Assembly: GCF_053078305.1 (NCBI RefSeq)
Contig: NZ_CP166879.1
Length of the DNA stretch: 64,000 nucleotides
Reading direction: 5' to 3' (one strand)
Part shown: positions 51,001-57,000 of the stretch, piece after piece
Layout: every line of letters starts with the position of its first letter
Position numbering within the stretch: position 1 is the first letter of the stretch
Made by a program: the position numbers

Positions 51001-54000
51001 GATGATTGTCTCGGCATCCGGCTATGAGAAAAAACTGACCAACGCAGCCGCCAGTGTTTCCGTAATCAGTCAGGAGGAATTGCAGTCCAGCCAGTACCAC
51101 GATCTGGCGGAGGCACTGAGAGCTGTGGAGGGTGTGGATGTTGAAAGTGGTACGGGTAAAACCGGTGGGCTGGAAATCAGCATCCGTGGAATGCCCGCCA
51201 GTTACACGCTGATACTGATTGATGGTGTCCGTCAGGGCGGGAGCGGGGACGTGACGCCTAACGGTTTTTCTGCCATGAATACCGGGTTCATGCCTCCTCT
51301 GGCCGCGATTGAGCGTATTGAGGTTATCAGGGGGCCGATGTCCACACTGTATGGCTCTGATGCGATGGGTGGTGTGGTGAATATCATTACCAAAAAGAAT
51401 GCAGACAAATGGCTCTCTTCCGTCAACGCCGGGCTGAATCTGCAGGAGAGTAACAAATGGGGCAACAGCAGCCAGTTTAATTTCTGGAGCAGTGGCCCTC
51501 TTGTGGATGATTCTGTCAGTCTGCAGATCCGCGGCAGCACACAGCAGCGTCAGGGCTCATCGGTCACATCACTGAGCGACACATCAGCCACGCGTATTCC
51601 TTATCCCACGGAGTCACAGAATTATAATCTTGGTGCGCGTATTGACTGGAAGGCTACGGAGCAGGATGTGCTCTGGTTTGATATGGATACCACCCGGCAG
51701 CGTTATGATAACCGGGATGGGCAACTGGGGAGTCTGACGGGGGGATATGACCGGACCCTGCGCTATGAGCGAAACAAAATTTCAGCTGGCTATGATCATA
51801 CTTTCACCTTCGGAACATGGAAATCGTATCTGAACTGGAACGAGACAGAAAATAAAGGTCGTGAGCTCGTACGCAGTGTACTGAAGCGCGACAAATGGGG
51901 GCTTGCCGGTCAGCCGCGGGAGCTTAAGGAATCGAACCTTATCCTGAATTCATTGCTGCTTACCCCTCTGGGAGAATCTCATCTGCTTACTGTGGGGGGA
52001 GAGTATCAGAGTTCGTCCATGAAAGATGGGGTTGTCCTTGCCAGCACAGGTGAAACTTTCCGACAGAAAAGCTGGTCGGTATTTGCTGAGGATGAGTGGC
52101 ATCTCACGGATGTACTTGCGCTGACTGCAGGCAGTCGCTATGAACATCATGATCAATTCGGGGGACACTTCAGTCCGCGTGCATATCTGGTCTGGGACGT
52201 GACCGATGCCTGGACGCTGAAAGGCGGTGTGACCACGGGATATAAAGCCCCCACCATGGGACAGTTACATAAGGGGATCAGCGGTGTATCCGGGCAGGGA
52301 CGTACTAATCTACTCGGTAACCCCGAACTGAAGCCGGAAGAGAGTGTAAGTTATGAGGCGGGGGTATATTACGATAACCTCTCCGGTCTGAATGCCAATA
52401 TAACAGGCTTTATAACAGACTTCTCCAACAAGATTGTCTCTTATTCCATTGATGATAACACCAATAGCTATACAAACAGCGGAAAGGCCCGCTTGCATGG
52501 TGTGGAATTTGCCGGCACATTGCCGCTGTGGTCAGAGGATGTCACTCTGTCGTTGAATTACACCTGGACCCGAAGTGAACAACGTGATGGTGATAACAAA
52601 GGTGCACCGCTGAGCTATACTCCTGAACACATGGTGAATGCGAAACTGAACTGGCAGATCACCGAAGAAGTTGCGTCATGGCTGGGGGCTCGCTATCGCG
52701 ATAAAACTCCACGCTTCACCCGGAATTATTCGTCGCTGAGCGCTGTACAGAAGAAAGTGTATGATGAGAAAGGAGAATATCTGAAAGCCTGGACGGTGGT
52801 GGATGCAGGTCTGTCGTGGAAGGTGACGGATGCCCTGACGCTGAATGCTGCGGTGAATAATGTGCTCAACAAGGATTACAGTGACGTGAGCCTGTTCAGT
52901 GCCGGTAAGAGTACGCTTTATGCCGGTGATTACTTCCAGACGGGCTCATCAACAACGGGATATGTGATACCTGAGCGAAATTACTGGATGTCGCTGAACT
53001 ATCAGTTCTGATAACAACAAAACGCCATCACTGATGGTAGCATATACGTTGCCACTGTAACTCCTGACGGAACAGTGGCAGCGTTACATGACGCACGGTG
53101 TCTGGTCGAAGTGACCGTCCAGGCGGTCACTGAACTCGATAATAAAGCAGCTCATTTCCATACGCCAGTCCTTCAACGGCATCGTCCATTTCTGGGACGC
53201 AGACTGGATTGCCAGCCACACAACTTTTTTCACCGCCTCGTTTGTCGGGAACACTTTACGCTTTTTGATCGCATGGCGGATCACGCTGTTTAGCTACTCG
53301 ATGGCATTCGTCGTATAGATCATTTACATATACCTGCCCCACTGATGTCTGTAACCCCCGACTCGGTGGGGCAGATTTCAGAAAGTATACCTGCCAGACA
53401 ATATATATTCCCGTCCTGCAGCCTGATAGCCATAACCAGTCTCATAATCTTTGTTGAACAGATTAGCTATTTTACCGCGAACTATCAGGTGAGGAGTGAC
53501 CGGATACGCAACCGCAACATCCCATAAACTCACACCGCCCATTTTGACTGACTTATAGGGCCAGGATGAGTAGTCCGAATCGTATCGCGATCCCATATAT
53601 TGATAAGTTATCCCCCAGTCAAAATCGAACACTTGCCAGTCAAGTTGATACTTCACTTGCAGTTTTGGACGACGTTCCAATGGTTTGTCAGTTAAGGCAT
53701 TTCTGGCATCCATATAATCGTAACTAACAGTATGCGTCAGTGCTCCTGTATCAAAGTTTACTGTAGCCTCAATTCCTTTAATGTGTACTTTTCCGTCGTT
53801 GTAATAACGAAGGGTATGAGGATTATAGTTAATCATTTCACTGATATAATTACGGTATCCTGAAATACGCCAATTTACGCCCCCAGTTAAACCTTCAAAT
53901 GCCCCTTCCCACTGTTTACTCTTTTCCGGAGCCAGATTCGGATTACCATACATACCATATAGCTGCCCCAGATTTGGCGCTTTGAAAGCAGTTCCATAGG

Positions 54001-57000
54001 AAGCGATAAAGCGATAACCCTCAATAAACTCCCATCCCGCACTGGATTGCCATGTTGTGTGGCGTTCAAATTGCGAGTTGTCGTCATTACGCACCGCGCC
54101 TTCTAACGTAAAATCGCCAAGTTTTTGCAGTCCTGTCAGATAAATCCCCGTGTTACGCTGATCGTAACCTTTTGGCAGATATCCAGTTCCAGGTGAAGTG
54201 GATTGTTTTTGCCAGTCGATACCAGCGCCAACATTACCGTGGCCGACTGTGACGCTATTTGTCCACTGTAGATTGTATTGTTTCATCTCATCCCGGTTAG
54301 CTGATGTGTCATAGCGTCCATAATGTGGATCGTAGTTGTAATCTTTACTATGGCTATAACTGGAAACAAGTTGAGATTGCAGTGTTTCACCAGCGTAGCG
54401 AAGACCTGCATCCCAGCTTTGACTATAAAGTTTTCGAGTATCAATCAGTGGAGAACCGGGAGAGTACCAGGCGTCATATTTAGTTCGGTTATCATAGCCG
54501 TAGCCACGAACAAATCCGCTCCACGTATCAGATAAGTTATGTTCAAGTTTGCCATAGAATGTTTTACTTAAAAAACCGTCTCTGTCTGACTGTGGTTGCA
54601 TCCCTGTACTGCCATAGGCAACAGCATCAAACCCCCTAGTATAGGTATAATCACCAAGAAGTGTTACACGGGTATTTTCACCAAGTTGCAGATGAGTGGA
54701 TATATCGTAATGTTGATAACTATTACTTCCCCATCCTGCGGAAATTTCAGTGCCAGTATTCTCACGGGATGTAATAATATTTATCACTCCGCCAATGGCA
54801 TCTGAACCATAAATTGCTGAACGTGGCCCACGGATATATTCTATACGCTGCACTAAAGCGACGGGAAACTGACTCAGGTCTGCAGCTCCACTGACACCCG
54901 CTAAATTCAGGCGCACTCCATCAATCAATACCAGAGTGTGGTTAGAGTTTGTCCCACGAACAAAAATTGTTGAGAGCTGCCCTTCACCCCCATGCTGAGA
55001 AATTGCAACGCCAGGCAAACGACGCAGAACATCATTTACAGAAGAAACCTGCCAGCGATCTATATCTTCTCGTGTCACAATAGTTACAGGAGCAAGCACG
55101 GTACTTAATGGTTCCTGAAAACGGTTAGCAGTAACAACGAGAGTATCCGGAGGGGTATCCTGTGCCCAGACAGAAAAGGCTGTGACGGAATACACCATTA
55201 GAAACCAATATTTTTTAATCATTGTAACGCATCCACAACAGAAGAAGAATATCGCAGTTACCATCGATAGTAAGTGATGATGAGAACCAGATGCGACGTT
55301 AACCGACAGGTCTTCAGACCTGGAAGGGCATCTGAAGATACAAAGAGATGATGATGCCCCCCCACCGGATGACCGTGTCCACATTACGCAATCATCGCAC
55401 CTTTCCTTACCGCTGCGTGTCAGTTTCGGATTCGCACTGGATTCCCTATTAACTCGCAGGACCGACAACTGGATATTACTGGTTGTAACAAGTTACTGTC
55501 CATACATGACTCAAAAATAGGAATGCATGAACACTCGGATCTAATACACATAATATTTTATCGGCGACCATAATAAGAATAAAACATATATATGCTCAAT
55601 TAGTTCTTTGATAGATTTCATATTAAAACCAGTAGAGCCATTCAGCGTGCAGAAAATAAACAATATAATTCTGTCACCAGAACATCCATACCTAAGCTCC
55701 AGTACTTACCAACTTCAGAATCCCATTCTTATCGCAATTGCATGAGCAGTATCTGATTGAATAATGTAAACACCAAATGAGGCCAAATTATTCAGACATT
55801 AAACTAGAACGCCAGTTTGTCTTTCGTTATTCTCAGGTACATTAGTTATAACCTGTTCCGCTCCCAATATACTCGCTAAATAGTAAATCAATGCATTAGC
55901 TCTGCTCGTGTGACTAAAAATCAAATTAATCACATACTGGCCACACTCATCAATAACCACTACCGCTGGAGTGCTGAATTTATTGTTGACCTGAGATGAC
56001 AGAGCCTGAATAGCTATATCTGTAGAGCCAATAAAAATCAGTACCGAATAGTTCGTGTATGCTTCTCGTACCGTCTGAACAAAACCACAGTTACAAGGTA
56101 AAAATCCATCTTCAAGCAAATTTTCGCAAGTAAAGCAGGTTATCGGCAACGTTTCTGCCAGTTGTTTTGCAAGTTGACCGCCTCTTGGGGTCAGGAAAAA
56201 CAGAGCTATAGACTCAGGTTTAACTATACTCATAGATAAAATCCATAGTATTTAAATAGTAACTCGACTTGCCGGGGGACATTCCGACAAGAATTAGCGC
56301 CATTTTAAGAATCTCTACAGCAGATTTAGTGAATCTCACCCTCTCAATTAATCGCTTGTCCAGAGTGTCAAAATCGGTGGAAAAACGAGCCAGCAATTTA
56401 AGAATTGGTCAATACATCCAGATTCTTTACGCACATTTCATGTATAATATCTCTAATATAATCATCTGTTCTCTTCAGCCTATATCGACTATCAACCTCT
56501 GATAATTCTATAAGTACTCTGACACGAACTGTAACTTCAACTTTCCACACAGAATTCCCCAGACAACATCCAACCAGCACTGTGAAAATCTTCCATACCT
56601 TAACTAACCATTCAAACCATCGATGGAACATATTCGCCACCATTAATCCCACCATGATATTGCCCATATAACTCCGACCACCACCAGACACATCACCTCC
56701 ACAGCCAATACGTAACACGCGCCCACTTTGTTGCTTCTGGCGAATAATCCGCTGAATAATATCGATAAAATTGCACACAGGTACAGTCAGTCCGGTGTCC
56801 CGGAAATAACAAAATCAACAAAATGCACCACACACCACACAAGAAATGTAATAACATACTTATTGCCACATTCAACCATCCGATAATCATCATTAATTGC
56901 TGGAAAAATGTATATGAAGATAACCAGGGAAAGTATTTCCCATATGTCTGCAACCAAACTATTGTTGAAATATCCAGTGTCCTTGACCCACGATATTCAT

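Follow-up and report, generated by a model that had tools for sequence, protein, structure and literature searches.

Does a second copy of the cobalamin receptor gene btuB, carried on a horizontally acquired island behind what annotation calls a cobalamin riboswitch, serve as a B12-regulated uptake gene for the propanediol operon beside it? The locus that raises this question lies in a 64,000-nucleotide stretch of DNA from assembly GCF_053078305.1 (contig NZ_CP166879.1), analyzed at its full length and called here the window. A preliminary description of the window had noted a btuB copy (hereafter btuB2) beside iha and the gene espI for a serine protease autotransporter of the Enterobacteriaceae (SPATE), with cob fragments and pocR-pduF-pduABCDE beyond it, and had likened the espI-btuB-iha arrangement to that of an island in Escherichia coli that produces Shiga toxin (STEC). 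We confirm these observations, and the comparison is correct: the arrangement is the module of the islands LPA and LAA. LPA is reportedly the locus of proteolysis activity of strain 4797/97 (AJ278144), described by Schmidt et al. in 2001, and LAA (locus of adhesion and autoaggregation) is said to have been described by Montero et al. in 2017. btuB2 is the already described second btuB of these E. coli islands, and the decay of its leader is the only point about it that is unreported.

The answer that we favor, with moderate confidence and from comparison of sequences, is that btuB2 encodes a working extra B12 receptor behind the relic of a riboswitch; the gene would be redundant, and its expression is probably insensitive to B12. 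A xenologous unit of promoter, leader and btuB would have been captured long ago on the STEC module espI-araC-iha-btuB. The BtuB2 protein would still work as a TonB-dependent cobalamin receptor, under the weaker but real purifying selection of a redundant paralog, while the leader would have decayed.

The leader of btuB2

The natural reference is the core btuB of E. coli, whose adenosylcobalamin (AdoCbl) riboswitch was reportedly described by Nahvi in 2002. The same riboswitch is treated in Bastet 2024 (PMC11162775). Core btuB and btuB2 have in common a promoter, an aptamer leader of about 240 nt, an L5-L13 kissing loop, a P13 stem, a P14 stem over the ribosome binding site (RBS) and a 614-aa receptor. 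Unlike the core gene, btuB2 does not adjoin murI, it has drifted toward AT, and P4, J11/10, the B12 box, P13 and P14 of its leader are damaged. The gene and its leader elements are placed as follows.

53378-55222, minus strand: island btuB (btuB2) coding sequence, 614 aa with the ATG at 55222; translated open reading frame (ORF), BtuB equivalog, structure match
55223-55466, minus strand: btuB2 leader, read as a btuB-type AdoCbl riboswitch relic from alignment and threading against core leaders
55288-55481, minus strand: extent of the match to Rfam Cobalamin RF00174, 45.5 bits
55473-55502, minus strand: putative promoter-like site from a promoter scan, conserved relative to core btuB, -35 TGGACA, 18 nt, -10 TAATAT
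55425-55441, minus strand: P4 hairpin, 3' arm CUGGA changed to CCGAA, two of five pairs broken (changed positions 55428, 55426 and 55424)
55359-55361, minus strand: J11/10 equivalent, where all core leaders read GAA, the window GGG, and the LPA and LAA copies GUG
55305-55320, minus strand: B12 box, core AGCCCGAAGACCUGCC changed to GGUCUGAAGACCUGUC in the window (invariant positions 55318, 55316 and 55306 changed)
55229-55253, minus strand: P14, RBS-sequestering stem, 5' arm GGCAUCC changed to GAUAUUC

Position 55466 aligns with what we take to be the 5' end of the btuB leader published for E. coli K-12 and is the putative start site of btuB2. The -35 element TGGACA is invariant across our 14-leader alignment, which holds core btuB upstream regions and island copies. 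A 696-aa ORF beginning with TTG (53378-55468, minus strand) was rejected as an over-extension through the leader, the true start being the ATG at 55222. At the other end, homology to the core btuB-murI locus is gone about 15-20 nt past the stop codon, which rules out a murI fragment 3' of btuB2.

Tested against RF00174, as the preliminary description had proposed, the leader scores 45.5 bits (E=3.3e-8) and so passes the gathering score of 31.5. The claim that the island brings a horizontally acquired second btuB with a leader of the cobalamin-riboswitch type is thus supported. The further claim that this riboswitch is apparently intact does not survive comparison with orthologous leaders: the score is about half of theirs, conserved elements are broken, and a truncated island copy scores equally well. 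Even within the match, 51 model positions are skipped and many pairs are non-standard. For calibration, core btuB leaders were scored in 12 enterobacterial species (Escherichia with four species, Superficieibacter with two, and Salmonella, Citrobacter, Pseudenterobacter, Pluralibacter, Enterobacter and Tenebrionibacter with one each): 11 score 86-98 bits and that of Tenebrionibacter 54.7; the core E. coli leader itself reaches 86-87 bits. The island leader of an LPA genome scores 46.4 bits, and three island variants span 45.5-47.3 bits. In the LAA-type copy of strain RM10466, island-type sequence starts only at ...UGCGAGUUAAUAGGG, and unrelated DNA stands in place of the native promoter and of the 5' strand of the closing helix P1/P2, both of which the window leader, unlike the LAA copies, retains. 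The 5'-truncated RM10466 leader still scores 47.3 bits, the Prokaryotic Genome Annotation Pipeline (PGAP) still calls it a riboswitch, and the btuB gene behind it is retained. Since a truncated copy scores the same, the covariance-model test cannot separate an intact from a broken riboswitch. Judged by match coordinates, with RM10466 as the one copy inspected, the 68 complete genomes that bear the island would divide into about 45 of the LAA type and about 23 that retain the promoter.

The damage is concrete when the leader is read position by position. It shares 85% identity with the leader of core E. coli btuB, and it is changed at 15 of the 132 leader positions that are invariant across all 12 core leaders; 11 of these 15 changes are GC-to-AT transitions. 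When each lineage represented by a single species is left out in turn, the corresponding number is 0 for Salmonella and Pseudenterobacter, 2 for Citrobacter, 5 for Enterobacter RIT418, 7 for Pluralibacter and 15 for Tenebrionibacter. Beyond the broken pairs of P4, the closing pair of the next hairpin is changed and P11 is also affected. The two conserved adenosines of J11/10 contact J6/3 of the receptor core (PMC5359240); the G-run that replaces GAA there is specific to the window lineage, unlike the GUG of LPA and LAA, and the indel between island variants adjoins this site. Both strands of the closing helix P1/P2 are present, with three G-C pairs turned into G-U, which leaves two G-C and four wobble pairs. 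On the expression platform, the canonical 7-bp P14 is sequence-invariant in core leaders (-9.9 kcal/mol), whereas the best local fold of the island sequence reaches -4.4 kcal/mol, mostly through G-U pairs, and P13 is weakened from -11.9 to -6.9 kcal/mol. In E. coli btuB, whose core leader mediates repression by B12 of about 97%, destabilizing P14 or the pseudoknot abolishes or reduces repression by AdoCbl (PMC11162775). Threaded onto the RNAalifold consensus structure of the core leaders, the btuB2 leader has eight broken pairs and an energy of +8.7 kcal/mol, versus -34 to -57 for core leaders (-53 for that of E. coli).

The tempo of change separates an old constraint from its recent loss. Between island and core E. 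coli genes synonymous sites are saturated, with a synonymous divergence (dS) of about 2. Divided by dS, leader divergence comes to 0.07 between island and core E. coli and to 0.07-0.10 across the six pairs tested that involve a core gene (four core-core and two island-core); because the island-core ratio resembles the core-core ones, the leader was for most of its history under constraint as a riboswitch. A comparison of two island variants gives 0.77 instead, roughly the synonymous rate. These variants differ by four substitutions and a 5-6-nt indel in 238 nt at a dS of 0.022, where core-like constraint would predict about 0.4 substitutions (Poisson P ~0.001). Fourteen of the 15 changes at invariant positions are also altered in the LPA copy, 13 of them to the same base, which places the decay before the split of the island variants. 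Leader and gene show the same AT drift: btuB2 has a GC content of 44% and 36% GC at third codon positions (GC3), versus about 50% and 50-55% in core genes. We propose the following history. The leader would descend from a genuine btuB AdoCbl riboswitch and, since its capture, would have drifted nearly neutrally with the AT bias of its gene, losing P4 pairing and both J11/10 adenosines, accumulating B12-box changes, and ending with a largely G-U closing helix and a weakened P14. The phenotype to be expected is expression from its own sigma-70-type promoter with a poor response, or none, to AdoCbl.

Several points weigh against calling the leader a relic, and most of them favor a working AdoCbl riboswitch, in which case btuB2 would be a feedback-regulated second receptor boosting B12 for the adjacent Pdu enzymes in a cob-deficient host. 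The leader is still above the Rfam gathering score and bears PGAP's cobalamin riboswitch annotation, and in other taxa many functional cobalamin riboswitches have scores of 40-60 bits. The GGGAA core, P3 pairing, the L5-L13 kissing-loop complementarity (GAUGAU/AUCAUC), the promoter and the start region are all retained, and over the long term the leader has been far more conserved than synonymous sites. The Pdu pathway requires AdoCbl, and a complete pduA-W operon, pduO included, adjoins the gene. The consensus used for threading was derived from core leaders and is hence biased toward them, and the within-island rate is estimated from few changes. We found no published binding, expression or transport data for the island btuB, the original LPA description not being covered, and as far as base changes can tell, a residual or altered ligand response of the leader is possible. 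We nevertheless regard a working switch as unlikely. Its score is half that of orthologous leaders and no better than that of a truncated copy, the damaged elements (P4, J11/10, B12 box and P14) are conserved ones, and evolution within the island lineage is close to neutral. In addition, a core btuB is present in E. coli anyway, and common pdu+ E. coli lack cbiA-P; the adjacency to pdu is missing from the canonical LPA and LAA islands, and none of the 5426 complete E. coli genomes shows it.

A separate observation concerns the core btuB leader of Tenebrionibacter intestinalis (L013, 5762-5937), the only low-scoring core leader at 54.7 bits, with changes at 15 of 147 invariant positions. It may represent a second, independent case of riboswitch decay.

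The BtuB2 receptor

From its predicted protein, BtuB2 looks like a functional cobalamin receptor under relaxed but real purifying selection. It clears the cut-offs of two BtuB models, NCBIfam equivalog NF007926 with 1038.3 bits (cut-off 836) and TIGR01779 with 851.8 bits (cut-off 599.7), has the plug (PF07715) and TonB-dependent barrel (PF00593) domains, and can be aligned throughout the mature protein with the E. coli BtuB structure 1nqe. It shares 78.7% identity with core E. coli BtuB. The Ton box, residues 6-12 (D6-A12, DTLVVTA), is identical to that of E. coli, and the residues that we take to form the calcium cage are all kept (D179, Q191, D193, D195, Y229, D230 and D241). Among the 24 cobalamin-contacting residues listed for BtuB (PMC7360065), 17 are identical to E. 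coli, and the seven changes are mostly conservative (S65T, A73S, S74N, S93A, I101V, N228K and Y232W). The ratio of nonsynonymous to synonymous divergence (dN/dS) against core genes is 0.03-0.06, as in core-core pairs, and rises to 0.32 between two island variants, which differ by nine synonymous and 10 nonsynonymous changes. At 308 otherwise invariant residues BtuB2 departs in 25 cases, versus 0-9 in lineages of similar divergence. A receptor under relaxed purifying selection is the pattern expected of a redundant paralog.

Some of these figures would also suit a unit that is decaying as a whole, with BtuB2 no longer a useful transporter and its ORF intact merely because too little time has passed. 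The within-island dN/dS is about six times the core value, the changed invariant residues and the low GC3 point the same way, LAA-type copies have lost the promoter, and core btuB makes the gene redundant. We consider this quite improbable. All island contexts examined (the window lineage, LPA and LAA) carry the ORF at full length, and in the BtuB2 90% cluster of 638 members, 10 of the 15 listed are full length (614 aa), the other five being labelled partial or shorter. Moreover, dN/dS stays well under 1, and BtuB2 preserves its Ton box and calcium cage as well as most of the residues that contact the ligand. At about 0.1 neutral substitutions per site, the figure given by the leader's changes at invariant positions, an unconstrained 1.8-kb ORF would probably have been broken by stops or frameshifts.

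The small RNA OmrA pairs with core btuB mRNA through positions +66 to +79 (PMC11162775). Within this region btuB2 carries three substitutions, at 55151-55153 (coding-sequence positions +70 to +72), so btuB2 may be free of regulation by OmrA as well. A further reading is that desensitization was selected: without AdoCbl feedback, and perhaps without pairing to OmrA, the island copy would allow constitutive corrinoid import to the benefit of gut pathogens that use Pdu or Eut. Consistent with this idea, the changes cluster in ligand-sensing and RBS-sequestering elements and reach the OmrA site, while the promoter (with a -10 nearer consensus), the start codon and the coding sequence are kept; the gene is also linked to virulence and iron-uptake cargo and, in the window lineage, to pdu. 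Yet neutral decay would produce just such a spectrum (11 of 15 changes GC-to-AT) and such a rate (about dS), and most island copies, being LAA-type, would have lost the native promoter, which is hard to square with selected high expression. We therefore hold selected desensitization to be very unlikely and retain relaxed selection on a redundant receptor behind a decayed leader as our reading.

Two observations bear on the ancestry of btuB2. A scan with six exact 8-residue BtuB2 peptides across 100,044 species, one genome each, found no close chromosomal source; the best matches were Salmonella arizonae (81%) and Escherichia (79%), and the window's own genome, not being a species representative, is outside this set. 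In addition, some core btuB alleles beside murI (e.g., NZ_CM128589.1, 4652837-4653160) are 88-89.5% identical to the 3'-terminal 324 nt of btuB2-type genes, versus the usual ~77%. The likeness points to recombination of core btuB with the island copy, and such exchange is probably the source of 471 records that fall in the 80-90% identity band when complete E. coli genomes are searched with the island gene.

The island, the junction and the cob/pdu block

Up to about 55605 the window is 98-99% identical to islands in STEC genomes negative for the enterocyte effacement locus (LEE), and its espI-araC-iha-btuB module has 97.9-98.6% nucleotide identity to described islands. PGAP gives the order in STEC islands as espI, AraC regulator, iha, cobalamin riboswitch and btuB, which is the order of the window; LPA and LAA share with it both this order and the same degenerate leader. 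The adjacency of iha and btuB has been described for LAA, both genes belong to LPA, and genomic islands of food-borne STEC have been listed with a "B12 uptake system" (PMC6920203, PMC6174562 and PMC9729726). What follows btuB differs: LPA continues into LacI and phosphotransferase system (PTS) genes and LAA into sulfatase and porin genes, whereas the window passes, after a cut at ~55605, into a cbiG fragment. The features beyond the cut are these.

55606-55798, no strand: about 200 unassigned bases that join the truncated LPA-type island to the cob remnant; E. coli LPA islands are matched as far as ~55605
55799-56233, minus strand: cbiG' fragment, N-terminal 137 of 351 residues; NF004463 at E=1.7e-47, below cut-off as truncated; PF11760 CbiG_N
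56693-57523, minus strand: cbiA-like fragment, of which residues 87-183 only correspond to positions 291-387 of the CobB/CbiA profile (E=8e-7)
57531-57705, minus strand: cob-operon cobalamin riboswitch, orphaned; RF00174 at 108.2 bits
57946-58863, minus strand: pocR; NF047788 at 529.9 bits (cut-off 500), 81% aa identity to common E. coli PocR
59067-59849, minus strand: pduF, MIP channel family; PF00230
60379-64000, plus strand: pduA, pduB, pduC, pduD and the start of pduE, where the window ends; gene calls, with Pfam BMC and Dehydratase LU, MU and SU domains in identical contigs

The cob fragments and the intact pocR-pduF-pdu start thus do adjoin the island btuB, as had been described. In a contig that continues the window past 64000 (L033, 16990-20483), the operon is complete from pduA to pduW, pduO included; pduW encodes a 398-aa member of the acetate-kinase family and is followed by IS66 TnpB and IS21 IstB/IstA sequence. 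Behind the cob riboswitch, the window holds no functional cbi or cob genes, only the cbiA-like and N-terminal cbiG fragments. This riboswitch has ~81% identity to the one that precedes a hypothetical ORF and cobUST where pdu+ E. coli have the common locus, and it has stayed intact while outliving most of its operon.

The junction is real and rare. Over cbiG', the junction, the leader and the start of btuB, 1,111 bases are identical in seven of eight other assemblies of the lineage, with one mismatch in the eighth; as the sequence recurs in eight other assemblies, it is not an assembly error. The exact BtuB2, PocR and PduC sequences co-occur in about 50 NCBI assemblies labelled E. coli (e.g., GCA_001902675.1), and the PocR cluster has three members. 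On the strength of these labels we reject Citrobacter or Salmonella as host, which the low identity of pdu to that of E. coli (~77%) had brought to mind. Among the 5426 complete E. coli genomes, the junction of island btuB and cbiG' occurs in none.

The partner block is itself unusual. Common pdu+ E. coli carry pduV...pduA, pduF, pocR, cob riboswitch, a hypothetical ORF, cobUST, ldtA and tRNA-Asn, and their pdu end, at pduV, lies beside tmaR. The window resembles cob/pdu loci of the Salmonella type in that pduF, pocR and the riboswitch diverge from pduA onward and the cob riboswitch is intact; unlike common pdu+ E. coli, it has cbiA' and cbiG' fragments, no cobUST in view, a pduW, and an IS66/IS21 flank instead of tmaR. 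In the E. coli genome and plasmid collections searched, the pdu block is ~77-83% identical to E. coli, Salmonella or Klebsiella pdu, and the plasmid collection offered no source above ~83%. The supposition that the island landed beside a chromosomal pdu locus is not supported, given this divergence from any other pdu block, the IS66/IS21 flank, the three-member PocR cluster, and the canonical island's continuation into PTS and LacI genes. We read both partners as mosaic mobile DNA that became neighbors through a rearrangement in one clone. We picture the adjacency as a deletion or rearrangement joint within a mobile-DNA mosaic, confined to one rare E. coli lineage, and the pair would then be neither a designed nor a general module for B12 uptake and propanediol use.

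That the island gene compensates for lost B12 synthesis, as had been proposed, is not supported either. Common pdu+ E. coli already lack cbiA-P while keeping the riboswitch and cobUST; E. coli in general is without cbi genes, and the species relies on corrinoids imported through core btuB. A core-type btuB is near-universal, being found in 5423 of the 5426 complete E. coli genomes (the set that lacks the window's junction), and about 69 extra btuB matches are island carriers, which therefore have two copies. Because E. coli imports B12 through core btuB, co-location with pdu is no evidence for compensation, and the propanediol link is unsupported as a general or selected feature: it is a curiosity of one lineage. 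That the mosaic might be a portable module, pairing a feedback-disabled btuB that imports B12 regardless of supply with a complete propanediol operon, strikes us as highly improbable; in that case transcripts from the PocR-activated cob promoter might also run on through the dead cbi fragments into btuB2 and make B12 uptake propanediol-inducible. Terminator and promoter scans returned no more sites than shuffled sequence, which neither supports nor excludes such read-through.

The remaining features of the window, at lower coordinates than btuB2, are these.

1905-3392: TIGR03752 protein of an integrating conjugative element (ICE)
9038-10651: IS66 transposase
10638-12866: ICE TraD
21067-23115: ICE TopB
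25740-26984: ICE STY4528-family replication protein
29698-31434: ICE ParB
31431-32963: ICE SPI-7-type DnaB
44350-48441, minus strand: espI-type SPATE autotransporter, with autotransporter barrel and Peptidase_S6 Pfam domains; annotated as espI in E. coli 2013C-3181
49355-50095, minus strand: AraC-type regulator, named from near-identical annotated E. coli islands
50924-53011, plus strand: iha; NF010012 at 1586 bits, annotated iha in an E. coli island ~98-99% identical

Positions 1-35500 form an ICE of the SPI-7/PFGI-1 type, within which a STAXI RNA motif (RF01728, 76 bits; 20508-20673, minus strand) lies just downstream of the topoisomerase III gene region. A P4-type integrase (35865-37127) directly follows the ICE partition genes; after it come a 1171-aa helicase-like protein (37579-41094) with weak matches to the anti-phage proteins PLuB, ProA and Hhe, and an EptA/CptA-like phosphoethanolamine transferase (41203-42702). 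An IS256/IS1414 transposase fragment (~53108-53325) lies between btuB2 and iha. The LPA integration site is the selC tRNA gene; no tRNA gene that could serve as an integration site was found anywhere within the 64-kb window, and the true ends of the island lie outside it.

What a probable riboswitch relic implies

An above-threshold covariance match, or the automatic label "cobalamin riboswitch", does not prove a working riboswitch. Here the decay of the leader was hidden by automatic annotation, and it took comparison with orthologous leaders to reveal a relic that clears the threshold, as does even a copy cut short at its 5' end. The island btuB offers a natural example of a riboswitch that decays after its gene has become mobile and redundant, with the gene itself still under selection. 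If expressed without B12 feedback, btuB2 could modestly raise corrinoid uptake in LEE-negative STEC.

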